Made by a program: the position numbers and the translations under genes. DNA of 64,000 nucleotides from an uncultured Clostridium sp. (lineage in GTDB: Bacteria > Bacillota > Clostridia > TANB77 > CAG-508): the NCBI GenBank assembly GCA_900554365.1, contig USGY01000005.1, positions 3,720 to 67,719 on the forward strand, given 5' to 3'. Position 1 is the stretch's first letter; every line of letters starts with the position of its first letter. Below are positions 7,205-56,131 of this stretch, in pieces. The notes beneath the pieces are model-generated. The model searched no databases, had not been told where the DNA came from, and was given only the letters and a program-made list of their open reading frames with translations.

Positions 7205-7243
7205 TATGTTTTAAATAAAAAATAAAAAAAGTATAATTTTATC

Positions 7244-7273: not shown

Positions 7274-7293
7274 AGTAATTGTCTTTACGATAT

Positions 7294-7385
<92 letters not shown>

Positions 7386-7438
7386 AATAAAACCCTGAAG
7401 GATTTATTATATACTTTAGGGCTTTAAATTTAATAGTT

Positions 7439-7528
7439 GTAGGTGTACCCAAGTGGTGAAGGGGGCAGTTTGCTAAACTGCTAGGTCGAGCAATCGGCGC
7501 GGAGGTTCGAACCCTCTCACCTACGCCA
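7439..7528 (+). tRNA. tRNA-Ser (anticodon GCT), CCA encoded
   Basis: Acceptor stem gtaggtg/cacctac, anticodon stem-loop gcagt-ttGCTaa-actgc, long variable arm, T-loop ggttcgaaccc, 3' gcca. Confidence 0.92.
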
Positions 7529-7531
7529 GAA

Positions 7532-7567
7532 AATAATATAAGGTTTATGAACTTATATTATTTTTTT
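7532..7567 (+). terminator. Rho-independent terminator after the tRNA pair
   Basis: aataatataag (7532-7542) pairs with cttatattatt (7552-7562), with a T-run to 7567. Confidence 0.7.
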
Positions 7568-7608
7568 GTTACAAAAGTATTACAATTGTATAAAAAAATA
7601 ATTTTTGT

Positions 7609-7637
7609 TTGAAAAAAAAAATAAAGTATAGTATAAT
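7609..7637 (+). promoter_or_regulatory. Near-consensus promoter in front of pilin paralogue 1
   Basis: TTGAAA (7609-7614), 17-nt spacer, TATAAT (7632-7637). RBS cagggag and ATG 7678 lie downstream. Confidence 0.6.
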
Positions 7638-7677
7638 AATAACGAATAACAAAATTTTGTAAAAACAGGGAGTAAAA

Positions 7678-8052
7678 ATGAGCAAAAAAGCAATAAATAT
7701 TTTAATAATATTAATGTTATTATGTGTTTTGGTGATATTGCCATCAGTAGCATATGCATCAAATGGAACATTTGATGCAAGTACATATCAACCAAGTAGT
7801 ACTACAGATGCAACTGGTGCAAGTAAAATACAAGATTTAGGAAATGTAATAATATCAGTTATAAGGACAGTGGGAACGATAATATCAGTTGCTATTTTAT
7901 CAATAATTGGAATAAAATATATGACAGGTAGTGTAGAGGAAAAAGCTGAATATAAAAAAACAATGTTACCATATGTAATTGGTGCTGTAATTTTATTTGG
8001 AATAACAAGCTTCATAGGTATTATAGTAGATCTTGTAAAAGGTTTAATATAA
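7678..8052 (+). CDS. VirB2/TrbC-like T4SS pilin paralogue 1
   Basis: Signal peptide ending AYA|SNG, two hydrophobic helices separated by the loop GIKYMTGSVEEKAEYKKTMLPYVIGA. Size is 124 aa. This is the topology and motif of Firmicute T4SS pilins. Confidence 0.8.
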   Translation: MSKKAINILIILMLLCVLVILPSVAYASNGTFDASTYQPSSTTDATGASKIQDLGNVIISVIRTVGTIISVAILSIIGIKYMTGSVEEKAEYKKTMLPYVIGAVILFGITSFIGIIVDLVKGLI

Positions 8053-8075
8053 TATACTAAAAGGAGGATGATAAA

Positions 8076-8525
8076 GTGAAAAATAAAATTATTATATATA
8101 TAACTACTGCTATAATATTATTGTTTGTTGGAATATTAATTCCTACAAATAATATATATGCAATGTTTACACCTGGAGGAGGAGTAGGATTTTCAAATGG
8201 TACTAAAAATAGTTCTTCTTCATCAACGCCAGATGATGTAATGAAAGATGCAGATGATTTTATAAAACAAGGGGAAAATACAGCTGATATTGATACAAAC
8301 AAATTACATGATACATCCAACTTTTTATATAATTTACTTTTAGCTTTTGGAATAGTAGTAGCAGTAATTGTTGGAATGGTAATAGGAATAATGTATATGG
8401 TTGGAAGTGTAGAAGAAAAGGCAAATATGAAAAAAGCATTAATAGGATATGCATTAGGATGCTTTGTAGTATTTGGAGCATTTGGAATATGGAAGCTTTC
8501 AATTAATATATTATCAAATGTATAG
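8076..8525 (+). CDS. Divergent VirB2-like T4SS pilin paralogue 2, with a longer Ser/Gly-rich N-terminal region
   Basis: GTG start follows an AGGAGG RBS. It has a signal/TM segment and a C-terminal core GIMYMVGSVEEKANMKKALIGYALG homologous to the other three paralogues. Confidence 0.7.
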   Translation: MKNKIIIYITTAIILLFVGILIPTNNIYAMFTPGGGVGFSNGTKNSSSSSTPDDVMKDADDFIKQGENTADIDTNKLHDTSNFLYNLLLAFGIVVAVIVGMVIGIMYMVGSVEEKANMKKALIGYALGCFVVFGAFGIWKLSINILSNV

Positions 8526-8536
8526 GTAGGTGTATT

Positions 8537-8890
8537 ATGAAGAATATCAAAAAAGTTATAATGAGTGCAATAATTATAATAACTATTTTTTGCCTAGGGG
8601 TTACATCTTATGGATTTTCTGTAGGAGATATGACAGGCAAAGATCCATCTAATGATGCTCAAAATTCAATAAATAATTTAGGACAGGGTGTTATAAAAAT
8701 AATAAGTACAGTTGGTACAATAATATCAGTTGTATTTTTAATTATACTTGGAATAAAATATATGACAGGTAGTGTTGAAGAAAGAGCAAATTATAAAAAA
8801 ACATTATTGCCATATGTAATTGGGGCTAGTATATTGTTTGCTGCATCAACATTAACAAGCATTATTTATAATATTGCAATTAATTTATAA
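8537..8890 (+). CDS. VirB2/TrbC-like T4SS pilin paralogue 3
   Basis: Signal peptide plus the core GIKYMTGSVEERANYKKTLLPYVIGA. About 85% nucleotide identity to paralogue 1 over the core, by eye. Confidence 0.8.
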   Translation: MKNIKKVIMSAIIIITIFCLGVTSYGFSVGDMTGKDPSNDAQNSINNLGQGVIKIISTVGTIISVVFLIILGIKYMTGSVEERANYKKTLLPYVIGASILFAASTLTSIIYNIAINL

Positions 8891-8902
8891 TTGTAGTATA
8901 AT
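8874..8902 (+). promoter_or_regulatory. Dedicated promoter for pilin paralogue 4
   Basis: TTGCAA (8874-8879, inside the end of paralogue 3), 17-nt spacer, TATAAT (8897-8902). Confidence 0.55.
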
Positions 8903-8989
8903 AAATAATAGATTATTATATTGTTATTATAATTCTTTGTGCATACAAAGAGATTTAATATATATTTTATAAAGAAAGGGTGAAAAGTT

Positions 8990-9358
8990 ATGAAAATTAA
9001 TGTAGAAAAAACAACAAAAATAGTTGCCATGATAATATTAGCTATTATGGTAGTAGCTGTTGCATCAACAGTATTTGCGTCAGTAGATCCATCAACATAT
9101 AAAGGTGAATCAAGTGTTAGCACAACAAAGATTGATAGTTTAGGTAATACTATTATAAAAATAGTTAGTACTGTAGGTTCAATTGCATCTGTTCTTGTAT
9201 TAGTTGTTTTAGGTATAAAATACATGATGGGAAGTGCTGAAGAAAAAGCAGAATATAAAAAGACTTTATTACCATACGTAATTGGAGCAGCTTTAGTTTT
9301 CGCAGCATCTGCAATTGCAGGAGTTGTTTACAACTTCGCAAATTCATCTATTGTATAG
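8990..9358 (+). CDS. VirB2/TrbC-like T4SS pilin paralogue 4, candidate major pilin
   Basis: Signal peptide ending FA|SVD and the core GIKYMMGSAEEKAEYKKTLLPYVIGA. It has its own promoter and is followed by a strong terminator. Confidence 0.8.
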   Translation: MKINVEKTTKIVAMIILAIMVVAVASTVFASVDPSTYKGESSVSTTKIDSLGNTIIKIVSTVGSIASVLVLVVLGIKYMMGSAEEKAEYKKTLLPYVIGAALVFAASAIAGVVYNFANSSIV

Positions 9359-9371
9359 TAAGGATAAAAAA

Positions 9372-9407
9372 ATACTGTTTAGTTTTAAAACTAAACAGTA
9401 TTTTTTT
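9372..9407 (+). terminator. Strong rho-independent terminator after pilin 4
   Basis: Perfect 13-bp stem atactgtttagtt / aactaaacagtat with loop ttaa, then a T7 run. Confidence 0.85.
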
Positions 9408-9528
9408 GTAAAATAACAGCTTAATAAAGAAAATATATAAGTTAAAGTTACAGAAATGTTACAGATATATTAAAAACATATTAAAACGTAAAAAAAAGCA
9501 TTAAAATGTCGCTTTTTTCTAGAAAGTT

Positions 9529-9537
9529 TGGTATAAT
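9529..9537 (+). promoter_or_regulatory. Extended -10 element (TGgTATAAT) in front of the T4SS structural operon
   Basis: tggtataat at 9529-9537, about 43 nt upstream of ATG 9580. No good -35 element was found. Confidence 0.4.
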
Positions 9538-9579
9538 ATATATGATAAAATAATTGTGTCAAAAAAGGAGGAAATTTAA

Positions 9580-9930
9580 ATGCAAACATATGAAATTCCA
9601 AGGAATTATAAAGGTGAGGGTAGAATATTGTATGTTTTCTCAACAAAAGCTTTAGGGTATACAGCAGCAGCAGCAGCTTTTGGAGGAATATTTTATCTTA
9701 TTTTTAAGGTATTAGGACTGCAAATGATAGGAATAGGAATTGTAGTATTTTTGGGTTTAATTGGATTTTGCATAGGTACATTTAAAATTCCTGATAATAG
9801 AAAATTCAAATTTACAGAAAAAACAGGTGGAGAAGCCATTGATGATGTGATAAAAAGATGGATAAAATTTAAAAGAGGAAAAAAGAAGATATATGTATAT
9901 CTAAAGGAGGAAACAAAAGATGAGCAATGA
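9580..9930 (+). CDS. PrgI/TcpE-type (VirB3-like) small T4SS membrane protein
   Basis: 116 aa. Two adjacent TM helices follow the N-terminal YEIPRNYKGEGRILYVFSTKAL. It lies directly upstream of the VirB4 region, the usual VirB3-VirB4 order. It ends with TGA (9928-9930), overlapping the next gene's start. Confidence 0.65.
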   Translation: MQTYEIPRNYKGEGRILYVFSTKALGYTAAAAAFGGIFYLIFKVLGLQMIGIGIVVFLGLIGFCIGTFKIPDNRKFKFTEKTGGEAIDDVIKRWIKFKRGKKKIYVYLKEETKDEQ

Positions 9931-11146
9931 TGGAATAACAAGTTTATTATCTGCAATATTAATAATAATGGTGAGTATACTGTTTGTGTTAATAATAGTT
10001 TATATTATATTAAGAGCTAAAACTAAAAAAGCAGAAAATTCAAATGGTGAAGAAATGTTGGCAGGAACCAAAAGACAAAAAACTATTCAACCCAAAACTG
10101 TAAATAATACATATTCAAAGCAATCAATATTTTCTTTTATGGAATTTGATAAAATTGAAGATAATATGATTGTAAGAGAAAAGGGAAAAAAATTCTTAAT
10201 GGTTGTTGAATGCCAAGGAATAAATTATGATTTAATGTCCGGAATTGAAAAAAACAGTGTTGAACAAGGATTTCTACAATTTTTAAATACTTTAAGATAT
10301 CCAGTTCAAATATATGTGCAAACAAGAACTGTTAACCTTGAAAGTGGAATTATAAAATATAAAGAAAGAATAAATAACATAAAGGACAGACTAATAAAAA
10401 AACAATTAGAATATACAAAAAAGGAAGCCTTAGGGGTTAGCGAGAAAGAACTAAATGAAGCTAAACTAGAATTAACAAGAGAACAGAACTTATATGAATA
10501 TGGCTCAGATTTAGTAAGTAATACAGAAAGAATGAGTTTGAATAAAAATATTTTAAGAAAACACTATTATGTAATTATAGATTATATGCCAGAAGATATA
10601 AATAATGGAAACTATGGTAGCGAAGAAATTACAAGTATGGCATTTTCAGAATTATATACTAAAGCTCAATCAATAATAAGTTCATTAAGTGTTTGTGGAG
10701 TAAATGGAAAAATATTAGATTCTAAGCAATTAGCTGAATTATTATATGTTGCATATAATAGAGATGAAGCAGAAGTATATGAATTAGATAAAGCATTAGA
10801 TGCAGGATATGATGATTTATATTCAACAGCACCAAATGTATTACAAAAGAGAATGAAAGAATTAGACAAAAAGATAGAAGAAGATGCTCAAAAATTAGTA
10901 AATCAAAAATTAAAAGAAGCTATTTGGGATTCAGAAGAAGAAAAAAGAGTAAAACAAAAAGAAGCACAAATGGATGAATTAATAAATCAAATGGCTCAAG
11001 TAATTATAGAAGAAAACCAAGATATGGTTGGAAAAAATATTGCTGATAGAGCAATAAAGAAAATAAAAGAAGATGGAAATACAAAGGAGGGAAAAGATGA
11101 AAAAGAACAAAAAACAACAAGAGGAAGAAGAAAGAAGATACAATAG
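9920..11146 (+). CDS. T4SS-associated membrane-anchored coiled-coil protein of unknown function
   Basis: AAGGAGG RBS precedes ATG 9920. It has one N-terminal TM helix followed by a K/E-rich, probably coiled-coil region. It is translationally coupled on both sides. No family was recognised with confidence. Confidence 0.6.
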   Translation: MSNDGITSLLSAILIIMVSILFVLIIVYIILRAKTKKAENSNGEEMLAGTKRQKTIQPKTVNNTYSKQSIFSFMEFDKIEDNMIVREKGKKFLMVVECQGINYDLMSGIEKNSVEQGFLQFLNTLRYPVQIYVQTRTVNLESGIIKYKERINNIKDRLIKKQLEYTKKEALGVSEKELNEAKLELTREQNLYEYGSDLVSNTERMSLNKNILRKHYYVIIDYMPEDINNGNYGSEEITSMAFSELYTKAQSIISSLSVCGVNGKILDSKQLAELLYVAYNRDEAEVYELDKALDAGYDDLYSTAPNVLQKRMKELDKKIEEDAQKLVNQKLKEAIWDSEEEKRVKQKEAQMDELINQMAQVIIEENQDMVGKNIADRAIKKIKEDGNTKEGKDEKEQKTTRGRRKKIQ

Positions 11147-13052
11147 TGAGGAAGATATAAGCATTTTAAAAAAAGCAACATTAAAAGATTTAATTGCACC
11201 ATCAGGAATTGATGCTTCAAATATTGACCATATGGAAATTATATCTAATACAAAAAGATATGCAAGAAGTTTCTTTGTTTCAACTCTTCCTAGAATGTGT
11301 ACTTTCCCAGAATTGTTTAGGGATATGTATCTTTTCGGCGATATAAATACATCGATTTATATCACACCAATAAAAGAAGACAGATCACAAAATGATTTAA
11401 ACAGAGTTATTAATGAATTGGAAACAGAGAGAATTGTTGCAGCAGATAGAGGAAATATAAACAGACAAAGTACAATTACTCAAAAAAGATTGGAAGCAGA
11501 ACAATTAAGAGATGAAATTGCAGCAGGATTTAACAAATTATTTGAAGCAACAGTTGTATCAACATTATTTACATATAATTTAGAGGATTTAGACAGATAT
11601 ACAAAAATGTTAGCTGCAGAAATGTCAAAAACTTTAGTTGGAATAAAGAGTGCATGGGGTATACAAGAAGAAGCGTTTCAATCCAATTTACCTTTAATGA
11701 ATAATAAAATAAATAAATCACATACATTTGATAGAAATTCAATGGGAACAGTATTCCCATTTACAACATCAGAAATAGGACATCCAACGGGAGTTCCGAT
11801 TGGATTTAACAAGCAAACTGGAACACCAATATTATTTGATAATTTTGCAAGTTCATTAACAAATTATAATATGGTTATTTTTGCTAAATCTGGTGCCGGT
11901 AAATCTGTTACAATGAAAACATTGGTTTCAAGATCTTCAGTACTTTCTGGAATCGAAAGTTTGGCACTAGATGCTGAAGGTGAATATACAGTTGTTGCTG
12001 AAAGTCTTGGCGGAATAAATGTTGTAATAAGCCCAACATCAAAAACAATTATAAATATCTTTGATATTGAAACAGAAACAATTAAAGATGAAATCACGGG
12101 AAAAGATAGAGTTGTTTTAAATGTTGAAAACAAGGTTGAAGACGTAACTCAAGGTTTACTTACAATGTCAAGAGGTAGTACAAGAAGTACAGAAGTTAAT
12201 GAGTTAACAAAACAAATTATAGCAGAAACAGTTGCAGAAGAATATGCAGCACTTGGTATTACAAGCAATCCAAATAGTTTATATGAAAAAGATTCAGCAA
12301 TGGTTTCAAGAGGAGAAATACTTGCAAAGAAGAAAAAGCCAATGCCAACAATAGGCAGCTGGTATAGAAGATTACAAGCAAAAGCAAAAGATAACAAAAA
12401 CCCAGATTATCAATATCATTATAGTTATTTACTTAAGGTTATGAAACAATACATAAGAGAATATGATGGACAAATGGCATATTTTGATGGACAATCTACA
12501 TTTGAATTATTAGAGGGAGCTCCCTTTATAAATCTTGATATTTCTCAACTAGAAGAAAGATTTGCAAGACCACTTGCTCAACAAATTTTACTTTCTTGGA
12601 TTTGGGAAAAGTTTGTTAAGAAAAATAGTGAAGATAAAACAAGAGCAGCTAAAAAAAGAGTACTAGTTGATGAGGCATGGATGTTACTTCCATATCCAGA
12701 AGCCGTAGATTTTTTAAATAAAATGGCAAGACGTGCAAGAAAAAGAAATGTATCTTTGGCAATTATTTCACAGAGATTCCAAGATTTCTATGAAAAGCCA
12801 GAAGCACAAGCTGTTTTAACATCTTCTGACACCAAGTTGTTCTTAGCACAAGATAAATCAGAAATTCAATACTTGAAGGAAGTATTTAAACTTTCAGATG
12901 GTGAAGCTAATTTCTTAGTTACATGCCAAAGAGGAGAAGGATTATTTAAGGTTGGAGCAGATACAGCAATCTTAAAAATTACACCAACGAGAAAAGAGTT
13001 TGAGTTTGTTGAAACAAACTTAAACCAATTAGCGAAAAGAAAAAATAACTAA
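11097..13052 (+). CDS. virB4: VirB4-family T4SS ATPase (PrgJ/TraE/TrsE type)
   Basis: Walker A FAKSGAGKSVTMK and Walker B KRVLVDEAWMLL are present. The N-terminal region LIAPSGID...RYARSFFVSTLPRMCTFPELF is typical of Gram-positive VirB4. ATG 11097 follows AGGAGGG. The longest ORF starts at 11073. Confidence 0.9.
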   Translation: MKKNKKQQEEEERRYNSEEDISILKKATLKDLIAPSGIDASNIDHMEIISNTKRYARSFFVSTLPRMCTFPELFRDMYLFGDINTSIYITPIKEDRSQNDLNRVINELETERIVAADRGNINRQSTITQKRLEAEQLRDEIAAGFNKLFEATVVSTLFTYNLEDLDRYTKMLAAEMSKTLVGIKSAWGIQEEAFQSNLPLMNNKINKSHTFDRNSMGTVFPFTTSEIGHPTGVPIGFNKQTGTPILFDNFASSLTNYNMVIFAKSGAGKSVTMKTLVSRSSVLSGIESLALDAEGEYTVVAESLGGINVVISPTSKTIINIFDIETETIKDEITGKDRVVLNVENKVEDVTQGLLTMSRGSTRSTEVNELTKQIIAETVAEEYAALGITSNPNSLYEKDSAMVSRGEILAKKKKPMPTIGSWYRRLQAKAKDNKNPDYQYHYSYLLKVMKQYIREYDGQMAYFDGQSTFELLEGAPFINLDISQLEERFARPLAQQILLSWIWEKFVKKNSEDKTRAAKKRVLVDEAWMLLPYPEAVDFLNKMARRARKRNVSLAIISQRFQDFYEKPEAQAVLTSSDTKLFLAQDKSEIQYLKEVFKLSDGEANFLVTCQRGEGLFKVGADTAILKITPTRKEFEFVETNLNQLAKRKNN

Positions 13053-13066
13053 TGGAGGATAACTTT

Positions 13067-16000
13067 ATGAAATTTTTTATGAATAAAAGCATATGGTCTA
13101 AAATTGCTATACTTTTAATAATTGTATTGCTGTTTCAATTTGTAGTAACTAAACCGACATTGGCGAAAGCAGAAGTTGGAGATACAAGAATAGATTTTGG
13201 AGGAAAATTATTATCACCAGTAATGTCATTAGTTGTATCATTAGCTGATGCCATGATGGATATGATGCATTCATCCATAATGGGAACAAATGAATCGCTA
13301 TTGCCCGTTGATGTAGATAGTAAATGGTGGGAGATATTATCCAAGGTATTAGTTATTGGCGCAATAGTAGCAGCAGCAATTTTCGTAACAATAGCTACTT
13401 TTGGAGCAGCAGCTACTGTAGGTGCGGTAATAGGTGCTATTGGAACTGCATTGTGGACAGCATTAGGTGCAGGAGTAGCTAGTATAGGAGCTTATTTTGT
13501 TTTAGATAATGCTTTTGATCAGCTTAAAATTAAAGGTAAAGCAAGTGCTGTATCTTATACTGATGATATTGAATTACCGAGAACACTATATTTACCAGCT
13601 TATACATTAAGCCCAGAAGAAATTTTTGAAGGAAAAATTTTGTTATTTAATGTAGATTTCTTTGGAAAGCCAAAAGAAATAAAAAAAGCTGAAACAACGA
13701 CAGAAGATGGTAATAAAACTGTAAATTATTATTATTATTTGAAAGATACTAATAAAGCTGATACAGAAGATAATAGAGTAAAAACTTCTAACCAAGATGT
13801 TGCAGCTGATTTACAAGGTAATATATCAAAATGGTATGTACAAATAAGAAATATAGTATTGGTATGTATGATGATAGTGCTTTTGTATATTGGTATAAGA
13901 ATATTATTAACATCATTAGCAGGTGAAAAAGCTAAATATAAGCAATTTTTGCAAGATTGGTTTGTAGGATTAATTTTAATATTTTTTATGCATTATATTA
14001 TGACTTTTGCAGTAACGATAGTTCAAAAAATAACGGATATTGTAGATACAAGTGTTGATTCCAATACATATGTTGTAAAATTCCCAGTAGATAAGGATGG
14101 AAAAATAGTTAAATTCTTTAATAATAATAAAATGGCTTATATGATATATGATAAGAATGGAAAGCAAATTACAAGTGATGAAAACGGAAAAGTAAAAGAA
14201 GGAGACGCAGCTTATGTAGTATATCCAACTAATGTCTTGGGATCATTAAGATTAACCCTTCAATTACAAAGTTGGGGTGCAGGTTATATAGGATATGCTT
14301 TAGCATTTGTAGTTCTAGTCTTGTTTACAGTATTTTTTATATTTACATATTTAAGAAGGGTATTATATATGGCTTTTCTAACATTAATTGCACCAGTTGT
14401 AGCATTAACATACCCAATAGATAAAATGAATGATGGTAGTGCACAAGGATTTACTAAATGGTTTAGAGAGTATATATTTAATTTACTAATTCAACCAATG
14501 CACTTAATGTTATATTACATTTTAGTAACTTCAGCATTTGATTTAGCAGGAAAAAATATAATTTATACATTAGTAGCAATTGGATTTATGATGCCAGCAG
14601 AAAAATTATTGAGAAGCTTCTTTGGATTTGAAAAAGCTCATACACCTGGACTTCTTGCAGGACCTGCAGGAGCAGCTTTAACAATGCAAGGACTTCAAAC
14701 ATTATCTAATTTAAGAAGTGGAAAAAGTAAAAGTAAAGAAAGTAGCAAAGGTAATGCTAAACCACAAGTACGACAAGCTAATAATTCAAATAGACTTTTG
14801 AATAAATTAGATGGAGATGTAAATCCAACAAGTGAAATGGCATCATTAGTTGGAAATGCTGAAGAAGGTAAAGCTGCAGGAGCTGTTAATGGAAAAGTAG
14901 GAATAAATGATAGTCAATTAGGAATAGATAAAGATCAAGCAGCATTAGATGCAATGAAGGATAATGACTTAAATGGTGAGCAAAATGCATTAAATGATAT
15001 GATGTTAGAAGACGGAATTGTAACTGCTGGTGAAGTAGGAGCATTAGATAATGACCAAAAGGCAATAGATAATTTAAGAGATGAAATGGGAGATGATCCT
15101 GAAGCAAAGGCATATTTGGCCGAACAACAAGAAGATATAAATAAGAGAAGATTGGAATTAGCAAGAAGAGCTGGATTAGAAGAAGAACAAGCAAATGTAA
15201 GTCAAAATAGAATATATCAACAACCACTTCTTGATGCTGAACAAGATGAAATAAATAAAAGAAAAGCAGAATTATCAAGTGATAGTATTCCAACTGAAAA
15301 AATTGATCCTATTCAACAACAAAGAGAAGCAGTTATTAGAGATGCACAAGCAGAGGCAGCTGAAAAGATTTCACAAGATAGAGCAGAAATTCCAAAAATC
15401 AAGAGAGTTCAGTCTGCAGTTATGAGAGGTGCAATGAAAGCACCGAAAGTTATTGGTGGTGCATCAAGAGTAGCTGGAAGATATTTTGCTACTGGAGCAG
15501 GAGTTGCGTTGGGTGCTGCAGCTGGAATTGCGACAGGAAATCCAAAACAAATGCTTACATATATGGGAGTAGGTGCTGCGACAGGAAATAAAATTGGAGC
15601 AGTATCAGGTGAAAATATTTCAAATAATTTACAAAGTGCAGGACAAGTAATTAGTGATAAATATAATAAAATGCTTGATAAGGATGACGCATTAAGACAA
15701 ATAGAACTAGAAAAAGAAGTAAAAGCTCAAAGAAAAGAATATGTATCAGCTATGAAAGAAAGTGGATTTTCTAAAGATGAAACTAAAGAAATGGTGGACA
15801 AAGGAATAATAGATAGATATATTAAGAATAATGTAAATTCACAAGATGCAGTAGTATCAGAACAAATGAGAAGAGATGATCCAAAGATATCACAAGAACA
15901 AGCAATTGCGACAGCTAAGTATGCAAAAAGAGTTGGAGAAGCTTCTAAAGGACCAGAAAGAAAGAAATGGCAAGAACATTTTGCTGGTGAGTTTAAAGAT

Positions 16001-16096
16001 AAAGCTAACTTAAATCAAGAACAAGCAAATGTAGCAGCCGAACAAACATTAAAGAGGGTAGATGCATTTAATAAATATAAGAAAAAATTAAATTAA
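13067..16096 (+). CDS. VirB6/TcpH-like polytopic T4SS membrane protein with a long hydrophilic C-terminal extension
   Basis: About 1010 aa. It has an N-terminal signal/TM segment and multiple TM helices in the first ~540 aa. The remaining ~470 aa are charged, Q/E/A/K-rich sequence. Its position after virB4 matches the Firmicute T4SS order. The alternative start ATG 13052 overlaps the virB4 stop. Confidence 0.7.
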   Translation: MKFFMNKSIWSKIAILLIIVLLFQFVVTKPTLAKAEVGDTRIDFGGKLLSPVMSLVVSLADAMMDMMHSSIMGTNESLLPVDVDSKWWEILSKVLVIGAIVAAAIFVTIATFGAAATVGAVIGAIGTALWTALGAGVASIGAYFVLDNAFDQLKIKGKASAVSYTDDIELPRTLYLPAYTLSPEEIFEGKILLFNVDFFGKPKEIKKAETTTEDGNKTVNYYYYLKDTNKADTEDNRVKTSNQDVAADLQGNISKWYVQIRNIVLVCMMIVLLYIGIRILLTSLAGEKAKYKQFLQDWFVGLILIFFMHYIMTFAVTIVQKITDIVDTSVDSNTYVVKFPVDKDGKIVKFFNNNKMAYMIYDKNGKQITSDENGKVKEGDAAYVVYPTNVLGSLRLTLQLQSWGAGYIGYALAFVVLVLFTVFFIFTYLRRVLYMAFLTLIAPVVALTYPIDKMNDGSAQGFTKWFREYIFNLLIQPMHLMLYYILVTSAFDLAGKNIIYTLVAIGFMMPAEKLLRSFFGFEKAHTPGLLAGPAGAALTMQGLQTLSNLRSGKSKSKESSKGNAKPQVRQANNSNRLLNKLDGDVNPTSEMASLVGNAEEGKAAGAVNGKVGINDSQLGIDKDQAALDAMKDNDLNGEQNALNDMMLEDGIVTAGEVGALDNDQKAIDNLRDEMGDDPEAKAYLAEQQEDINKRRLELARRAGLEEEQANVSQNRIYQQPLLDAEQDEINKRKAELSSDSIPTEKIDPIQQQREAVIRDAQAEAAEKISQDRAEIPKIKRVQSAVMRGAMKAPKVIGGASRVAGRYFATGAGVALGAAAGIATGNPKQMLTYMGVGAATGNKIGAVSGENISNNLQSAGQVISDKYNKMLDKDDALRQIELEKEVKAQRKEYVSAMKESGFSKDETKEMVDKGIIDRYIKNNVNSQDAVVSEQMRRDDPKISQEQAIATAKYAKRVGEASKGPERKKWQEHFAGEFKDKANLNQEQANVAAEQTLKRVDAFNKYKKKLN

Positions 16097-16114
16097 TAGA
16101 AAGAGGTAATAATC

Positions 16115-17080
16115 ATGCATAATCTAATAAGATTTTATAATCAAAATAGAAAGGCAATTTGGATAGGCATTGGAATTATTGCCTCTCTATTTATATTACT
16201 TCAACTTCTTAATTTTATCGCTAAAAAAAATAATAATAAAATAACAGATTCAAATTATTCAAATTTAGTGCAAGAACATAAAATTCAAAGTGATTCAAAA
16301 GGAAATATAGCAACAGATAAATCAGTGGTAACTGGAGATAAGCTATCTTCTGAATCACTAAAAGATCAAACAAGTGTTATAGAGCAATTTTTAAATTTAT
16401 GTAAAAATAACAATGATGAAGAAGCATATAATATGATTACAGATGAATGTAAAGAAGAGATGTTTAATACTGTAGAAGATTTTAAAAATATATATTTAGA
16501 TTCAATTTTTAAAACAAAAGGCGTTACATTTAAAATATCAAATTGGTTTGGAAATACATATAAAGTTGATTTTACAGTTGGAGATATGTTATCAACAGGA
16601 AATCCAGATGATGTTGAAAACATACAAGATTATATAACTATAAAATCAGAAAATAATGAAACAAAAGTAAATATTAATAAGTATGTAGGAAGATATGAAG
16701 TAAATAGAGAAAAAGAAGACAATAATATAAAAATTTCAGTTATATCAAAAAATATATATATGGACTATGAAAAATATAAAATAAAAGTAGAAAATAATAC
16801 AGATAATGATATTTTACTAGATGAAAGAAAAAATATAAATACAATGTATATTCAGGATGAAAAAGATGTTAAGCATGCAGCCTATACACAAGAATTAACA
16901 ACTCCTGATTTAACTGTTAACAATCATGGTGCAAGAACACTTACAGTTAAATATTATAGTGCATATACTTCAAGCAAAAAAATAGATAAACTAGTATTTT
17001 CAGATGTGGTTTTAAATTATAGTCAAGATTTAGACAATGTATTAAATCCACAAATTGGAGAAATATCAATAAATTTATAA
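16115..17080 (+). CDS. Bitopic T4SS-associated protein, a candidate VirB8/TcpC-type scaffold (unverified)
   Basis: One N-terminal TM helix (AIWIGIGIIASLFILLQLLNFIA) followed by a ~280-aa extracytoplasmic domain. It sits between the VirB6-like and hydrolase genes. The functional call rests only on topology, size and gene order. Confidence 0.45.
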   Translation: MHNLIRFYNQNRKAIWIGIGIIASLFILLQLLNFIAKKNNNKITDSNYSNLVQEHKIQSDSKGNIATDKSVVTGDKLSSESLKDQTSVIEQFLNLCKNNNDEEAYNMITDECKEEMFNTVEDFKNIYLDSIFKTKGVTFKISNWFGNTYKVDFTVGDMLSTGNPDDVENIQDYITIKSENNETKVNINKYVGRYEVNREKEDNNIKISVISKNIYMDYEKYKIKVENNTDNDILLDERKNINTMYIQDEKDVKHAAYTQELTTPDLTVNNHGARTLTVKYYSAYTSSKKIDKLVFSDVVLNYSQDLDNVLNPQIGEISINL

Positions 17081-17091
17081 AAGGAGAAAAA

Positions 17092-20000
17092 ATGAACAAT
17101 AATTCTGAAGCAGTAAGACAAGCAATTAAAAAAGTTGCAAAAAAAGTTGGTAAAGTAGTTTCTAAAATAATGTTTATTCCATTAGTAATTTTTTCTATTA
17201 TAATTATATTGTTAGGCGCGTGTGTATATTTTATAACAGTTGATGATGGGACTTATAAAGAAGGAGATTGGAAAAGTACAGGATATGGTGCAGCAGTATA
17301 TAAATCTGAAGCTAAGGTAAATTCTGATGGTTCAATATCTGCAGGAAAAACAGCTAAAGAAATATGGGATGAATTAAGAAAAAATGGTAGTAGTGTAACA
17401 GATTATTTAAGTGGACCTAAGGCTTTAGCAAAGTTAATGAATGCAGAATTAGTAACTTCTTTTCCAGATACACGTTCTAATCCAGATGAAAAAATAGACT
17501 GGGATAAGGTGGATTTGTTAGGAGATAAATTACAAGGAATAATTAAATTCAAGCGTGGAGATAAAGATGGAAAAACATATACAATGTCATATGTAGATGA
17601 AACAACATTTAGTGGATGGATGGAATGCTATAATTTAACAGGGAGTGAAGAAGCTAAGAAAAATGTATTAAGCCATTTTACAATAGTAAGTGGTGATACA
17701 AGTAGTTCTTCTAATGGTAGTTTGAAAGTTAACCTTTCTAAAGATCAGGTTACAGATGCTTCACAAAAAATATTAGATGCAATTCCTAAAGTGCCATCAC
17801 CCGGACAGGGATATTGTTTGGGATGGGTTAATAAAGTATATCAAGCAGCTGGTGTTGGTTCTCTTAATCAAATAGGAGCATATCAAGCTTTTCAAGCTAC
17901 GCATGTTTCAACAGATAGAAATAATATTCCTGTAGGTGCAGCTGTATATTGTACGGGATCTCAATCAGCAGGAATTTATGGACATGTTGGAATATATGTT
18001 GGTGACAACAAAGTTATGGATAATATTGGATATATTAGGACAATTGATTTAGACAAATGGATAAAAGAAGCTGAAACTTCTGGTAATACCCAATGCGGTG
18101 GAAAACCTGGATGGCTAGGATGGGGCTGGTGGACTGGAGGTTCACCAACTGTAACAGGAACTGGAAGTAGTACAAGTAGTGATGAAACAAAAGATAATTC
18201 TAATACAGATAAAAATACAACAAAAAAAGTTGAAGATGGAAAAATTGAAACCAAAGGAAAATCTTATAGTGTAAAAGTAGCAACATGGAATTCAACAACT
18301 ACAAAAGTTGAATCTAATGATCCAGCTGTAAAAGGATATACGACAACACAATATAACATGACAGCTACAACAATAAATTATCAAGATTTAGTATCTAAAT
18401 ATACTATGCCATTTAATTTATTATATGCGTTTTTAGTAGTTGGAGAAAGTGAAGATTTTGTTTCAGAATTAGCAGATTTAGTATATAATAGTGATATTGA
18501 AATCACTGTATATGATAATTATACTAAAAATACTGATGTAGATAAGTGGACATATACGCGAGTGGTAGAAGACGATGTTAATGCAACTGCAATCTTGGGA
18601 GATAAGATGAAGAGCACCAGTTTTACGAATAAAACTAGTAATCAATATACAACAACAAAGACGGTTATAACAGAAACTAATACATTGGATGTTAAAGTAA
18701 GTAAAGCTAATGTATGGATTGTGGATTATGAGTCAAATGTTGAATATCAATCCAATAAACCAAACAGTACATCATCAGATAATGGACAAGATGATCAAAA
18801 GAAACCTTCTAAAAAAACAACAGTTGGACCAGTATATAATTATAATGCAAAAGAAATTGATGAATTGGAAAAGCAAGTTTTAGATGAAGCGAATGGTGAG
18901 AGTAATGAATATAAGAAATCTGATGTGAAGACGTCTTCATTTTATGATAGATATAAATGGATAACAGATATAAATGATAATGTAACAAATACAACGGAGT
19001 CATCTTCATATACATCAAAACCTGGTACAGTAAAAGAGAAAACAGATCGTAAATCAAAAGATCCTAATTTTGTTACAATATATAATAAAAATAAATATGA
19101 AAGAAATGCTTCTAATATTGAAACTGCTGCATCATGGTTATTTGAAATAATTCAGATAAATCAGGATACAACAGATATGTTAGATTTAATAAAATATTTA
19201 TTATATAAGGCAACGGGGATAAGTTATGGAGTAACAGAATTTGATTTTAGTATTTTTGATCCTTCTAATTTTCAAAAGGTAACAACAGGTTCAGAGGGAG
19301 GATTATCATTAAATACGACAATGTTTACAAAAGATGTATTTAAAAAGGCATTAGAATCTTATTACAATAAGACACACAATCAAGCCTTTTATAATAATTT
19401 TGTATTAAAAGCAGATGAGATTTATGATGCGTCAGTAAGAAATAATGTTAATCCTGAGTTAGTTGTAGTAACCGCAGGAACAGAACAAGGATGGAAACAA
19501 GGAGGAGGAGCTTATAATTATTGGGGAATAGGAGTATATAATGGCTCTAATGTTGGACAAAGTTTTAGTAGTATGTCTGATGGAATAGCAGCATTTGCTA
19601 ATATTATAAAAAAATATTCTCCAGGTGGATCTATGGCTAATCTGATAATGCAAAGATACGAGGAAAGAAAAAATTCGGGTTGTGATCCTACAGGATATGG
19701 TATGCCAGGAACTTTGAGTGGATGGCAATCAGTATATTCTTCTTTAGGATATCATGTAACAGGAAGTGCAGGGGCAGGTGGATATTATTACATGGATCCT
19801 GGTGTAGCAGGAGTAACTAAAATATATAAAACACATAGTGAGTTTTTACAAAAATGTTATAATGTAGGTGGAGCACATGCGTATGGAACTATAACAACAG
19901 CATGGGAACAAGGGCAATATACTGCATATCAACTTGAACAAAAATTAAATTTATGGAATGCTATTTTTGGAGACTTCGGAACTTTAAGCTCAACATCAAC

Positions 20001-20352
20001 GGATGGAACTGGAAAAGGAGCTCAAGTCGTTGCAGAAGCAAGAAAACAAATTGGAAAACCATATGTATGGGGAGCTGCAGGGCCAAATAGTTTTGATTGT
20101 TCTGGTTTAACAATGTGGTGTTATAACAAAATTGGAATAAAAATATCTCATAATGACAGATGTCAAAAAGCTGAAGCTAAAAAAGTTGTTCCTGTATCAC
20201 AAGCAAGAGTAGGAGATATCTTATGGAAAGATGGACATGTTGGAATCTACATAGGAAATAATCAATATATACATGCACCAACTCCTGGACAAACAGTAAC
20301 AATAGCCAATGGAGCAAATTCGATGTTTGTAAATGCATTACAATTCTTTTAA
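17092..20352 (+). CDS. T4SS peptidoglycan hydrolase (PrgK/TcpG-like) with three putative hydrolase modules
   Basis: N-terminal TM helix. A CHAP/NlpC-like Cys...His module (QGYCLGWVNKVY...GHVGIYVGDN, roughly nt 17764-18067). A glucosaminidase/lysozyme-like segment (VVVTAGTEQGWKQGGGAYNYWGIGV, roughly nt 19300-19700). A classic C-terminal NlpC/P60 domain (GKPYVWGAAGPNSFDCSGLTMWCY...GHVGIYIGNNQYIHAP). Confidence 0.85.
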   Translation: MNNNSEAVRQAIKKVAKKVGKVVSKIMFIPLVIFSIIIILLGACVYFITVDDGTYKEGDWKSTGYGAAVYKSEAKVNSDGSISAGKTAKEIWDELRKNGSSVTDYLSGPKALAKLMNAELVTSFPDTRSNPDEKIDWDKVDLLGDKLQGIIKFKRGDKDGKTYTMSYVDETTFSGWMECYNLTGSEEAKKNVLSHFTIVSGDTSSSSNGSLKVNLSKDQVTDASQKILDAIPKVPSPGQGYCLGWVNKVYQAAGVGSLNQIGAYQAFQATHVSTDRNNIPVGAAVYCTGSQSAGIYGHVGIYVGDNKVMDNIGYIRTIDLDKWIKEAETSGNTQCGGKPGWLGWGWWTGGSPTVTGTGSSTSSDETKDNSNTDKNTTKKVEDGKIETKGKSYSVKVATWNSTTTKVESNDPAVKGYTTTQYNMTATTINYQDLVSKYTMPFNLLYAFLVVGESEDFVSELADLVYNSDIEITVYDNYTKNTDVDKWTYTRVVEDDVNATAILGDKMKSTSFTNKTSNQYTTTKTVITETNTLDVKVSKANVWIVDYESNVEYQSNKPNSTSSDNGQDDQKKPSKKTTVGPVYNYNAKEIDELEKQVLDEANGESNEYKKSDVKTSSFYDRYKWITDINDNVTNTTESSSYTSKPGTVKEKTDRKSKDPNFVTIYNKNKYERNASNIETAASWLFEIIQINQDTTDMLDLIKYLLYKATGISYGVTEFDFSIFDPSNFQKVTTGSEGGLSLNTTMFTKDVFKKALESYYNKTHNQAFYNNFVLKADEIYDASVRNNVNPELVVVTAGTEQGWKQGGGAYNYWGIGVYNGSNVGQSFSSMSDGIAAFANIIKKYSPGGSMANLIMQRYEERKNSGCDPTGYGMPGTLSGWQSVYSSLGYHVTGSAGAGGYYYMDPGVAGVTKIYKTHSEFLQKCYNVGGAHAYGTITTAWEQGQYTAYQLEQKLNLWNAIFGDFGTLSSTSTDGTGKGAQVVAEARKQIGKPYVWGAAGPNSFDCSGLTMWCYNKIGIKISHNDRCQKAEAKKVVPVSQARVGDILWKDGHVGIYIGNNQYIHAPTPGQTVTIANGANSMFVNALQFF

Positions 20353-20371
20353 TATGTAGGGAGGATATAGA

Positions 20372-21121
20372 ATGAAAAAGATAATGATAAGTATTTGTAT
20401 AACTATTTGTGTAATATTATTAATATTATTGATAATTATGTTTAATAATAAAAATTCTCAACATAGGACTAATAATGTAGAAACAAATGGTGATAGCAAA
20501 AATATTACATATACTACAGAAAAATTGAGAGATGCTACAAAATTTTATGCAATTGAAAAATGTATTCAAGAAAATAAAGACCAAAATTTTGTTGCAAAAG
20601 AAATGAATGTATTAGATGAATATGAATTTACTAGTTATGCTGTTTATGGAAAAAGTAATAATGCTGATAAATATTATATAGTTAGAACAGATTTATCAAG
20701 TGATGCATTTAGAATTGAAGATGTAAATGTAAGTAATATAGATAGTATTGATTTAAAGACTAATTTAAAAGAAATAAAAGATGATGGTAATAATAAGATT
20801 AATTATAGTACCATTACACCTAATGATATGGGAGAAAGATATTTACAAGAATTTCTAAATTTAGAAATATCAAATCCTGAAGAGGCATATAAATTATTGG
20901 ATGAAAATAGTAAGAAAAATAAATTTTCAACTTTGGATGACTACAAAGATTATATAAAAAATAATTTGGATAAAATAAAAAATGAGAGTTTTAAAACTTG
21001 CAATTATGAATATGATGATGATTATACTATGTATTGGATAGAAACAACTGAAAATAATATGTATACATTTAAAGAAAATAGTATAGAAAATTATACAGTA
21101 CTAATAACAGAATTAAATTAA
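20372..21121 (+). CDS. Bitopic membrane-anchored protein, short paralogue of the next gene; unknown function
   Basis: N-terminal TM helix. Shared blocks with the 21139 gene: FYAIEKCIQE vs FYTIENCIKK, and YLQEFLNLEISNPEEAYKLLDENSKKNKFSTLDDYKDYI vs YFQEFKELVINKPEEAYDKLDVNYRNKRFGSLDEFENYI. Confidence 0.6.
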   Translation: MKKIMISICITICVILLILLIIMFNNKNSQHRTNNVETNGDSKNITYTTEKLRDATKFYAIEKCIQENKDQNFVAKEMNVLDEYEFTSYAVYGKSNNADKYYIVRTDLSSDAFRIEDVNVSNIDSIDLKTNLKEIKDDGNNKINYSTITPNDMGERYLQEFLNLEISNPEEAYKLLDENSKKNKFSTLDDYKDYIKNNLDKIKNESFKTCNYEYDDDYTMYWIETTENNMYTFKENSIENYTVLITELN

Positions 21122-21138
21122 TAAAGTGGAGATATAAT

Positions 21139-22509
21139 ATGTCAAAAATGAAAAAAATAATTATTGTTGCAATTATTATTATATTAATAATAATTGCTGC
21201 AATAATAGGATATATGGTGACTAACCAAAAGAAAGATTTGGTAGATAAAGATAATAATAATGTAAATACTACCCCAAATAATAATATAGTTGAAAATAAT
21301 GTTCAAACAGTTAAAGACAGTGCTTTATTTTATACAATAGAAAATTGTATAAAAAAATATGAAGGATATGTAAATACAAATTATGAAAAACAAGTTGATG
21401 AAAGAAATCTTCCATCATTAGCTGCATCATATGGATTTTCAACTCAAGAAGATAAAAATAGTGCTATAATGAATTTTTTAGATCAAGATTATATTAAAGA
21501 AAATAATATAAATAAAAATAATTTAAATAATTTTATTGAAGAAACTAATAATGAAGATATTATAGTTACAGCATTAAAAATAAATAAATTGGAAAGTGAT
21601 AATTCTGAAGTAAATTCTTATAGTGTATATGCTAAAAAAAGTGATGGGGACAATGAAAAAAATATATATTATATTATAAAATTGGATGAAAGTAATGAAG
21701 CATTTTGCATTTATCCATTGAATAAAGATTATAAAAATATCGATGAAATAAATGTAAAAAATCAAACTAAAAACATTGAAAAAAATAATCAAAATGCTAT
21801 TATACAAAGCGATGTAAGTGATGCTGAGATTACAACTAAATATTTTCAAGAATTTAAGGAGCTAGTAATAAATAAGCCAGAAGAAGCTTATGATAAGTTG
21901 GATGTAAACTATAGAAATAAAAGGTTTGGTAGTTTAGATGAATTTGAAAATTATATAAATGCAAACATAGATGATATCGAATTATCACAAATTTTAAAAT
22001 ATTTAAAAGAAGAAAATGATAATTATAATGAATATGTAGCAAAAGATAGATATGAAAATTTATATATTTTTGATGAAGAATCACCAAATAATTATACTGT
22101 AAAATTAGATACATATACAATTGTTACGGATAAATTTAAAAGTGAATATAGCCAATCTGAAGAAGAAAGAAAAGTTCAATTACAATTAGATGTGTTTAGA
22201 CAAATGATAAATAATCAAGATTTTAAATCTGCATATAATGTATTAGCGGATGGATTTAAAAATAACTATTTTAAGACACAAGATAGTTTTGAAGAATATA
22301 TGAGAAAACATGCATTTAAATATAATAAGATAAATTTTGAAGATATTAATCAACAAGGTAATTTGTATGTATGTAAAGCCAATTTTACAGATTTAAGTGA
22401 AGGAAATTATGAAGATGAAAGTAAAAAAGATGTTAATCAATATGATTGGACATTTATAGTACAACTAAATGATGCTGAAAATTTTAAATTATCATTTAGT
22501 ATTGAATAA
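21139..22509 (+). CDS. Bitopic membrane-anchored protein, long paralogue of the previous gene; unknown function
   Basis: N-terminal TM helix and an N/K/D/E-rich extracytoplasmic region. It shares motifs with the 20372 gene. It is the last gene of the tightly packed operon. Confidence 0.6.
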   Translation: MSKMKKIIIVAIIIILIIIAAIIGYMVTNQKKDLVDKDNNNVNTTPNNNIVENNVQTVKDSALFYTIENCIKKYEGYVNTNYEKQVDERNLPSLAASYGFSTQEDKNSAIMNFLDQDYIKENNINKNNLNNFIEETNNEDIIVTALKINKLESDNSEVNSYSVYAKKSDGDNEKNIYYIIKLDESNEAFCIYPLNKDYKNIDEINVKNQTKNIEKNNQNAIIQSDVSDAEITTKYFQEFKELVINKPEEAYDKLDVNYRNKRFGSLDEFENYINANIDDIELSQILKYLKEENDNYNEYVAKDRYENLYIFDEESPNNYTVKLDTYTIVTDKFKSEYSQSEEERKVQLQLDVFRQMINNQDFKSAYNVLADGFKNNYFKTQDSFEEYMRKHAFKYNKINFEDINQQGNLYVCKANFTDLSEGNYEDESKKDVNQYDWTFIVQLNDAENFKLSFSIE

Positions 22510-22510
22510 A

Positions 22511-22536
22511 AAGAGAGAATGTGATATTCTCTCTTT
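22511..22536 (+). terminator. Hairpin terminator closing the T4SS operon
   Basis: aagagagaat (22511-22520) pairs with attctctctt (22526-22535). The T-tail is short. Confidence 0.5.
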
Positions 22537-22558
22537 AAATTATATATAGGAGATCAAT

Positions 22559-24157: not shown

Positions 24158-24170
24158 AAAATGGGTACTA

Positions 24171-56118: not shown

Positions 56119-56131
56119 GGAGGAATTGCGA

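Follow-up and report, generated by a model that had tools for sequence, protein, structure and literature searches.

A chromosomal type IV secretion system without linked DNA-processing genes in uncultured gut Clostridia

The question raised by this locus is what purpose a type IV secretion system (T4SS) serves in a chromosome that carries no DNA-processing genes beside it. The locus lies within 64,000 nucleotides (nt) from an uncultured Clostridium sp. (assembly GCA_900554365.1, contig USGY01000005.1, positions 3,720 to 67,719 of the forward strand). This whole stretch is referred to as the window, and coordinates without a further label are positions in it. An initial annotation, made from the letters alone, had described an operon of T4SS genes and had argued that the genes were under selection and not part of a decaying integrative and conjugative element (ICE). 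The present analysis shows a complete gene set for a monoderm T4SS together with a coupling protein, without linked genes for DNA processing or integration. The genes are fixed in the chromosome, vertically inherited and under purifying selection. The explanation to which most weight is given, with a probability of about 0.6, is that of a domesticated T4SS which serves contact-dependent exchange or attachment and not its own transfer.

A complete monoderm gene set with a coupling protein

The cluster begins directly after a pair of tRNA-Ser genes with the anticodons tga and gct (7294-7385 and 7439-7528, + strand), identified with ARAGORN and Rfam. From this point the open reading frames (ORFs) run along the + strand, as the initial annotation had it. 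The number of co-directional genes was corrected from 14 to 12 T4SS genes within 7678-22509, or to 13 if the gene at 22559-24157 is included. Similarly, the genes of 9580-22509 are indeed tightly packed, overlapping or being separated by spacers of 11-19 nt, and GGAGG-like sites precede most of them; they number eight and not ten.

The first four genes of the cluster, all on the + strand, encode VirB2/TrbC-like pilins, each of which passes the Pfam gathering score for TrbC, T4SS_pilin or both, as had been proposed. Pilin 1 (124 amino acids (aa), 7678-8052) scores 36 bits with TrbC and 27.8 bits with T4SS_pilin, both above the cut-off, and pilin 2 (149 aa, 8076-8525) reaches 29.3 bits with T4SS_pilin, again above it. 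The corresponding scores are 39.4 bits with T4SS_pilin and 37.8 bits with TrbC for pilin 3 (117 aa, 8537-8890), and 44.4 bits with TrbC and 39.5 bits with T4SS_pilin for pilin 4 (122 aa, 8990-9358). A signal peptide and two hydrophobic helices are present in each of the four; in pilin 1 the layout is signal peptide, variable N-terminal segment and two helices. The paralogues are 24-47% identical among themselves, with pilin 2 the most divergent (24-30% identity to the other three). Among 245 members of the pilin family, the loop between the helices, G-I-K-Y-M-x-G-S-x-E-E-K-A-x-x-K-K, is nearly invariant, and the entropy peaks in the mature N-terminus and the tail, which are hypervariable. A tblastn search of 72,556 plasmids with pilin 4 returned no match.

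The pilins are followed by the proteins of the translocon. The first is a small membrane protein of 116 aa (9580-9930, +) located just upstream of the VirB4 pair. Its annotation as PrgI/VirB3-like agrees with its position and with its topology, a two-helix hairpin, while its Pfam match to PrgI (PF12666) is sub-threshold at 23 bits against a cut-off of 27 bits. The protein is 51-77% identical across species. The next gene (9920-11146, +) encodes a TrsD-like protein of 408 aa, in which a single N-terminal membrane helix is combined with a domain similar to the N-terminal portion of VirB4/TraC. In strain-level contigs, a counterpart equal to it in length and position carries a precomputed Pfam assignment as TraC-like (PF26593). 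The protein in the window aligns weakly with an NCBIfam VirB4 model (positions 47-403), and is 25% identical to the product of the gene just upstream of virB4 on the Clostridium botulinum plasmid p12/29.

The VirB4-type ATPase itself (651 aa, 11097-13052, +) contains the Walker A motif GAGKS and the Walker B motif VLVDEAW that had been read initially, and Pfam (P-loop_TraG at 1.5e-15, AAA_10 and DUF87) and NCBIfam both confirm the family. The best NCBIfam models are those of the CD1110 family and of the VirB4 of Mycoplasma ICEs. The match to the CD1110-family model (1.2e-61) spans model positions 176-729 and scores 208.9 bits, below the equivalog cut-off of 325. The start codon at 11097 has a AAGGAGGG site upstream and equals the start of P0001. 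The ATPase is without the usual N-terminal domain. Since it aligns only from model position 176 and a TraC-like protein of 408 aa is encoded upstream, VirB4 is split in two, with the N-terminal part as a separate TrsD-like protein and the rest as the ATPase. The same split has been described for the pGO1 subclass (PMC12102498).

The gene that follows virB4 encodes the VirB6-like polytopic protein of 1014 aa (13052-16096, +), whose true start is possibly at 13067. At least six hydrophobic segments lie between residues 9 and 431, ahead of a long hydrophilic C-terminal half. Weak NCBIfam matches to the MMCAP2_0566 and pLS20_p028 families of conjugal membrane proteins (33.9 bits against a cut-off of 90 bits) and a sub-threshold T4SS_pilin-like hairpin accord with the original assignment, as does its placement, which is that of an 864-aa protein on p12/29. 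An exact look-up of the 1014-aa product retrieved no record, and sequence and profile searches of the PDB gave nothing usable for this protein or for the TrsD-like one. In one other species (CANRGT010000006.1; L060:11978-21953) four tandem VirB6-like paralogues stand after virB4, an arrangement that recalls the VirB6 arrays of Rickettsiales.

The membrane-anchored cell-wall hydrolase of 1086 aa (17092-20352, +) is predicted to have a VirB1-like function. Three hydrolase domains had been assigned to it, of which only the C-terminal NlpC/P60 domain is above threshold (4.1e-28); the other two candidates, one N-terminal and NlpC/P60-like (E 1.8e-4), the other glucosaminidase-like (E 6.5e-3), fall short of it. 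The PDB matches of the hydrolase include the Tn916-like proteins CTn1-Orf17 and CTn7-Orf16.

Three single-anchor membrane proteins are encoded on either side of the hydrolase. The first (321 aa, 16115-17080, +) was modelled with AlphaFold2 from 61 sequences at a mean predicted local distance difference test score (pLDDT) of 85.2, as a helix followed by an alpha+beta domain and a beta-sandwich. Its family comprises 381 proteins, is confined to this clade and has no Pfam domain. Foldseek comparison of the model with the PDB gave weak beta-sandwich matches and no VirB8, TcpC, TraM or PrgL structure (E < 0.001). The protein is not called VirB8-like because no VirB8-type structure was retrieved, and a VirB8-like scaffold role for the single-anchor proteins is put forward as conjecture. 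The second (249 aa, 20372-21121, +) has one N-terminal hydrophobic helix and no Pfam family. It is a paralogue of the third (456 aa, 21139-22509, +), with 37% identity and a BLASTP E of 1e-24. The 456-aa protein is made of repeated alpha+beta modules that are common to the 321-aa and 249-aa proteins, and hhalign relates the 321-aa and 456-aa families at a probability of 91.8% (E 7e-7). A single-sequence AlphaFold2 run on the 456-aa protein gave no usable model (pLDDT 37), and profile searches of the PDB found no match for the 321-aa or the 456-aa family.

The machine had been taken to be without any part for handling a substrate. This was correct for a relaxase within the window, and overlooked a VirD4-type coupling protein of 674 aa at 56385-58409 (+), which is unlinked to the main cluster and lies 34 kb downstream among core genes. 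The protein matches Pfam T4SS-DNA_transf (1.3e-81) and TraG-D_C (2.2e-39), and scores 451.5 bits with the CD1115 family of NCBIfam, for which the cut-off is 250. It has two N-terminal membrane helices, the Walker A motif GSGSGKS and an acidic C-terminal tail. Directly upstream, at 55603-56371 (+), are genes for two conserved small proteins, one of 171 aa and one of 86 aa, and a CbpA-like DnaJ gene (54609-55490) adjoins this module. Homologues of VirD4 in the same clade are 74-82% identical, one of them lying on a record equal in length to the contig of a VirB4 locus, and the context is shared by other species in the order DnaJ/CbpA-like gene, gene for a protein of about 173 aa, gene for one of about 92 aa, virD4 and prf (74-75% identity). 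Identity of the 171-aa protein to its counterparts in other species, which always have the same position, is 71-75%, and it is better conserved than the products of the adjacent SbcC, SbcD and DnaJ-like genes. No match to it was found in Pfam, NCBIfam, the PDB or the 72,556 plasmids searched by tblastn. On plasmids, the closest VirD4 proteins reach about 35% identity to that of the window.

The initial annotation had assigned the cluster to the mating pair formation (MPF) class MPF_FA. The detectable sequence affinities are instead to families of the MPF_FATA type, namely PrgI, the TrsD-like protein and CD1110. Two characteristic parts of MPF_FATA systems, a TrsD-type protein and an NlpC/P60 cell-wall hydrolase, are both present.

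Chromosomal position, inheritance and selection

Pfam profiles were searched against all ORFs of at least 120 aa in the window, and none gave a match above threshold for a relaxase (MOB), Rep_trans, a tyrosine or serine recombinase or a transposase. Relaxase-like families were also absent from the 10-kb flanks of the virB4 and virD4 loci of other species. A second copy of either tRNA-Ser 3' end was not found in the window at up to 3 mismatches. In these respects the reading of the first annotation was upheld, as it was for the flanks, which consist of core genes on both sides. Upstream are mnmE, mnmG, rsmG, parA, parB and DUF4446; downstream are a murA-type gene, dnaX, recR, murC/ddl (Mur ligase) and prf, together with sporulation genes. 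A contig whose ParA is identical to that of the window extends this picture towards the replication origin, with dnaN-dnaA, then the divergent series rpmH-rnpA-yidD-yidC-jag-mnmE-mnmG-rsmG-parA-parB-DUF4446, and then the pilins. On this contig about 10.3 kb separate the dnaA-rpmH spacer from the first pilin gene.

The comparative set was obtained by scanning one genome per GTDB species (535 relatives), and the counts given here are from the best 80 loci. All of these are from metagenome-assembled genomes (MAGs) of uncultured Clostridia, from the guts of humans, mice, rabbits, chickens and sheep, and complete chromosomes, 1.57 and 1.70 Mb in length, are among them; OZ006978.1 and OZ007016.1 are complete genomes with the cluster. 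Gene order is collinear in 78 of the 80 species-level loci. Of the 58 loci with sufficient sequence upstream, 56 have three to five pilin genes. The parA-parB pair, usually with DUF4446, precedes the cluster in 31 of the 80 loci, these being the loci whose flank reaches the neighbouring genes. Both tRNA-Ser genes occur in all 13 loci of the parA-parB type that were scanned for tRNAs, and the pair stands ahead of the cluster in 13 of 26 other species scanned. In a more distant subclade the cluster is preceded by a pair of peptidase-M16 genes and a GH25/LysM gene, which is another non-mobile context.

VirB4 has diverged at the pace of its chromosomal neighbours. Identity to the window across species is 80-91% for VirB4, 78-86% for MnmG and 78-90% for ParA. 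The mean pairwise divergence among 21 species is 0.161 for VirB4 and 0.168 for MnmG, and the distances of the two proteins are correlated (Mantel r 0.72, 0 of 2000 permutations). Among 1.84 billion representative proteins, the VirB4 of this clade extends down to 65% identity, after which the identity drops to 41%. The member at 65% also has pilins and a TrsD-like gene, and lies beside pgi and ssb. The named nearest relatives of VirB4 are from Firmicutes: Heliorestis, Peptostreptococcaceae and Clostridium plasmids. Near-identical copies on plasmids had been named as something to look for; the nearest plasmid VirB4, on C. botulinum p12/29 and its relatives, is only 43% identical.

These data bear directly on the possibility that the locus is a still-mobile ICE, inserted at tRNA-Ser and equipped with an integrase and a relaxase of unrecognised type. 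The components are of conjugative families, and elements classically integrate in such a position, immediately after two tRNA genes. Of the features of a self-transmissible element, a VirB4-family ATPase and a type IV coupling protein are found here, the latter unlinked; a relaxase, an integrase with attachment (att) sites or plasmid replication functions, and a patchy distribution are not. The same position and gene order recur in dozens of species, with a divergence that matches the neighbouring core genes, and identity to the closest mobile copies does not exceed 43%. There is no break in composition at the upstream boundary of the cluster, no att repeat, and no integrase, relaxase or transposase in the 64 kb. 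An element that still moves is thus largely refuted and has very little probability left.

Selection was assessed within the species by comparing the window with three strain-level contigs, for which the number of synonymous substitutions per site (dS) is about 0.04-0.11 in the longer genes. The ratio of nonsynonymous to synonymous substitution (dN/dS) is 0.007-0.008 for virB4, 0.04 for the TrsD-like gene, 0.08 for the 456-aa gene, 0.09-0.14 for the hydrolase and 0.15 for the 321-aa gene, compared with 0.04 for mnmG. The small genes have too few changes for the ratio to be judged. Within-species values were used because dS between species is about 0.7-1.2 (saturated) and some alignments slip, making between-species ratios unreliable. 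Six strain-level contigs contain the same 12 genes in the same order and all at full length. VirB4 is an uninterrupted ORF in all 80 loci, and the VirB4 of the window recurs at 100% identity on at least 72 human gut metagenome contigs. For the PrgI-like gene and the TrsD-like gene, 77 of 79 are intact.

A decaying remnant without a current function could be argued from a virB4 nonsense codon in one strain-level contig and from the strong divergence of several components between species. Across species, the core in cytoplasm and membrane is conserved and the parts predicted to be exposed evolve fast: identity is 33-72% for the pilins and 23-57% for the hydrolase, the VirB6-like protein and the single-anchor proteins, compared with 80-91% for VirB4. 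This explanation is refuted by the conservation of the locus and by the selection on it: the 12 genes are full length in the six strain-level contigs, VirB4 is intact in 80 of 80 species, an intact virB4 allele occurs on at least 72 contigs, and the within-species dN/dS is 0.008-0.15. The comparison of the same locus in relatives, which the initial annotation had proposed, hence found it present, collinear and under purifying selection. The argument made there for selected genes in place of a decaying ICE was borne out.

Two further observations were made in the course of this comparison. An IS21-type element (istA/istB) lies between the peptidase-M16 and pilin genes of the complete genome OZ007016.1 (L081:4319-6352). 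One MAG, CANQES01 (Lapin-007 bin29), contains two virB4 loci (L014 and L075) that are 86% and 82% identical to the window; this would indicate either two copies or a mixed bin.

Transcription signals and neighbouring genes

The four pilin genes are on what looks like their own transcription unit. The best sigma-70-like promoter match of the region 7200-25000, TTGAAA-17-TATAAT, is at 7609-7637 (+) ahead of pilin 1 and agrees with the consensus at 11 of 12 positions. It is merely suggestive, because promoter-like sites are no commoner in the sequence than in shuffled versions of it. After the pilin array is a hairpin with a T-run that resembles an intrinsic terminator (9364-9409, +), with a folding energy of -22.3 kcal/mol and a z of -7.4; none of 200 shuffled sequences was as stable. 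The consensus terminator scan missed this hairpin because its stem is A+T-rich. Ahead of the machinery genes, an extended -10 element TGGTATAAT can be read at 9529-9537 (+), which may represent a second promoter. The hairpin and the extended -10 element together suggest that the pilins and the machinery are transcribed separately. No riboswitch or regulatory RNA was found near the cluster with Rfam.

At the other end, the 456-aa gene is followed after a gap of 49 nt, with a GGAG site upstream, by a gene for a polytopic membrane protein of 532 aa (22559-24157, +). The protein has about 10 hydrophobic segments and a sub-threshold ABC_tran_2 match, and 25 of the 80 species loci have a homologue, at 33-59% identity, on the downstream side of the cluster. 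Its gene possibly closes the operon, although its membership is uncertain. A terminator-like hairpin follows at 24158-24188; it was called on the - strand and could act in both directions, as the symmetry of its A-run and T-run suggests.

Convergent with the end of the cluster is the gene for a membrane-anchored J-domain protein (24171-24893, - strand), with a patatin-like lipase gene next to it. The same pair is found downstream of the cluster in the loci L030, L047, L066 and L074 of other species. Both T4SS loci are therefore flanked by J-domain proteins, the CbpA-like gene beside virD4 and that at 24171-24893 beside the cluster. Further along, at 25924-30267 (- strand), is a fusion protein of 1447 aa with two BcrAD_BadFG ATPase domains and DUF2229, of the coenzyme A (CoA)-enzyme activase type. 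A sub-threshold IS110-transposase match on this protein was judged to be a false positive arising from its BcrAD_BadFG-type ATPase region.

The window is A+T-rich, with a G+C content of about 0.20-0.33 and a GC skew that is mostly positive. The G+C minima fall to about 0.18 at 59001-61000, in the SbcC-like gene, and about 0.20 at 21001-25000, in the last genes of the cluster. Among 45 + strand genes checked across the window, TGA serves as the stop codon in one, TAA in 36 and TAG in eight.

Likely function and relation to known systems

The system would have originated as the mating apparatus of an MPF_FATA-type Firmicute conjugative element, and is now a fixed, vertically inherited chromosomal locus of gut Clostridia with small genomes (about 1.5-1.7 Mb). 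In the proposed mechanism, the hydrolase opens the thick cell wall, and VirB4, with the TrsD-like and PrgI-like proteins, would energise the assembly of a channel and of a VirB2-type pilus. The channel may include the VirB6-like and single-anchor proteins, while the pilins would form an external filament. The exposed parts that evolve fast are expected to contact other cells; they comprise the pilin N-termini, the hydrolase, the single-anchor proteins and the C-terminal half of the VirB6-like protein. VirD4, perhaps with the 171-aa protein, would feed a cytoplasmic substrate into the channel, which may be protein or nucleic acid. The purpose of such a machine would be exchange with, or attachment to, neighbouring cells, in parallel with the essential system of epibiotic Patescibacteria. 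The roles listed in the initial annotation, namely effector delivery, DNA release or uptake, adhesion and mobilisation in trans, also stand as candidates.

This parallel is close in architecture. A chromosomal T4SS is present in about 80% of Patescibacteria genomes and derives from MPF_FATA systems (PMC12102498). TrsD and PrgI homologues lie beside VirB4, and 2-11 divergent VirB2 pilins are arranged in arrays (PMC12102498). The coupling protein is usually far off, relaxases are almost absent and the locus is often near dnaA (PMC12102498). In Southlakia epibionticum, the pilin array and the T4SS are essential, and this was the first T4SS shown to be so (PMC12857230). The Clostridia share with these bacteria a monoderm cell, a small genome and a chromosomal, vertically inherited system with no relaxase near virB4. 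The TrsD homologue and PrgI/VirB3-like protein beside VirB4, the VirB6-like protein, and peptidase or lysozyme genes just downstream are likewise common to both. The divergent VirB2-like pilin arrays are detected by the same Pfam models (PF04956 and PF18895), the coupling protein is distant from virB4, and the locus is near the replication origin. The differences are that the host here is a spore-forming member of the Clostridia (Bacillota) and not a Candidate Phyla Radiation (CPR) bacterium, and that the coupling protein is strongly conserved here and is not essential in Southlakia (PMC12102498). Membership in the monophyletic Patescibacteria VirB4 clade is argued against by the named nearest relatives, which are Firmicutes.

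The closest relationship by sequence is with conjugative MPF_FATA systems, for which pGO1 Trs, pCF10 Prg and the C. difficile elements CTn2 and CTn4 are prototypes, p12/29 being the closest match. The cluster of p12/29 has the order pilin-like gene, small gene, TrsD-like gene, virB4, 864-aa membrane protein gene and peptidase gene, which corresponds to that of the window with its small membrane protein, large polytopic protein and hydrolase. VirB4 matches the CD1110 model, VirD4 the CD1115 model, and the NlpC/P60 hydrolase resembles the Tn916-like ones. However, only VirB4 and the TrsD-like protein of p12/29 are detectable by BLAST. The present locus is further set apart by not being on a plasmid or ICE, by having no relaxase or integrase in the window and by four pilin paralogues in place of one.

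The main rival to a domesticated contact-dependent system is the transfer of chromosomal DNA within the clade, by way of a distant or unrecognised relaxase and possibly with involvement of the 171-aa protein. VirD4 belongs to the conjugative family CD1115 and has been retained at 74-82% identity, and two conserved uncharacterised genes stand beside it, where relaxosome genes often lie. The nearest plasmid relative, p12/29, is also without a recognised relaxase, and T4SS-mediated secretion of chromosomal DNA is known in Neisseria. Against this, neither the 64 kb nor the 10-kb flanks in other species contain a relaxase-like family, no family match was obtained for the 171-aa protein, nor was an HUH-type motif seen when its sequence was read, and coupling proteins also serve systems that secrete proteins. 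DNA transfer is rated as unlikely.

A second rival is DNA uptake by a competence apparatus built from T4SS parts, like the ComB system of Helicobacter, which would provide a reduced genome with nucleotides or genes. The chromosomal location, the lack of a relaxase and the conservation in a small genome fit this, and one class of Patescibacteria has its T4SS loci near comF, recG and radA (PMC12102498). No competence genes adjoin the present cluster, however, and the essentiality of the Southlakia T4SS is not explained by loss of comEC (PMC12857230). The conserved VirD4 found here is also at odds with an uptake role. ComB-type systems are not known to have a coupling protein. Uptake is regarded as improbable.

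Other chromosomal T4SSs provide partial likenesses. The rvh T4SS of Rickettsiales is chromosomal, vertically inherited and found in reduced genomes, with its genes split between loci, no known relaxase and duplicated pilin and VirB6 genes. The present system resembles it in chromosomal location, vertical inheritance, split components, absence of a relaxase and duplicated pilins. The rvh system is a diderm MPF_T machine with an outer-membrane core complex that delivers effectors into eukaryotic host cells, and no sequence relationship to it extends beyond the universal VirB4 and VirD4. The gonococcal genetic island (GGI) of Neisseria gonorrhoeae, which secretes DNA, and Helicobacter ComB, which takes it up, are further chromosomal T4SSs that serve functions other than plasmid transfer, and in this they are like the system in the window. 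Both belong to diderm bacteria; they differ from it in that the GGI, a variable island, keeps a relaxase, and ComB is not known to have a coupling protein. A surface-filament locus is also conserved in an uncultured order of small-genome, low-GC gut Clostridia, TANB77, in the form of a Tad-type pilus cluster (PMC11680825). The names used at NCBI for members of that order are similar to those of the genomes in the comparative set. That is another machine (CpaF/TadA, TadB/C, TadZ), and the report on it mentions no T4SS or VirB (PMC11680825).

Several points weigh against a domesticated system for contact-dependent exchange or attachment. Its function is here read from the genes alone. A relaxase may be encoded elsewhere in the genome of about 1.6 Mb, or may belong to a family that was not recognised. 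Plasmid p12/29 is itself typed as "non-mobilizable", which suggests that the subtype may use a relaxase missed by current models. The strongly conserved coupling protein fits the transfer of DNA as well as that of protein, and no VirB8-like fold of the single-anchor proteins was found when the 321-aa model was searched with Foldseek. An obligate epibiont is not suggested, because sporulation genes are kept (spoIIR, ypeB, sleB-type and gerM-type). The parallel with Patescibacteria may be convergent or independent, since the named nearest VirB4 proteins are from Firmicutes. Finally, one strain-level contig has a nonsense mutation in virB4, GGA (Gly242) to TGA, that gives products of 241 and 393 aa. 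This contig (L095:16074-18029, ERZ27280262:k141_11795) has a ParA identical to that of the window and is a rare exception.

Whether the arrangement had been described before was left open initially. The same architecture is known for Patescibacteria (PMC12102498), and a 2025 review of T4SSs terms VirB2 in monoderm systems unique to that group (PMC12857230). The literature consulted yielded no description of such a T4SS in Clostridia or TANB77. With the present locus, the phenomenon extends beyond the CPR to ordinary Clostridia of the human and animal gut, in at least 80 species. This provides a second, independent lineage in which to ask what a relaxase-less monoderm T4SS with a pilus does, and Firmicute plasmid systems with pilin-like genes become plausible ancestors.

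By analogy with epibiotic Patescibacteria, the T4SS may even be a lifestyle-defining and possibly essential organelle, used for attachment to bacterial or host partner cells and for the exchange of macromolecules, as those bacteria appear to do. This extension is tentative, with the balance tilted against it. If true, it would be the first such system in a classical Gram-positive spore-former and would help to explain the resistance of these bacteria to cultivation. It would likewise suggest that the machine of the Patescibacteria came from Firmicute systems of this subtype, which already possess VirB2-like pilins.

The hosts are abundant, uncultured bacteria with reduced genomes, and a conserved contact-dependent machine in them is a lead for co-culture strategies. 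As exposed and fast-evolving proteins, the four pilins are candidates for surface antigens. The order TANB77 has been linked to the response to immunotherapy, and the host clade of this T4SS may belong to, or resemble, that order.

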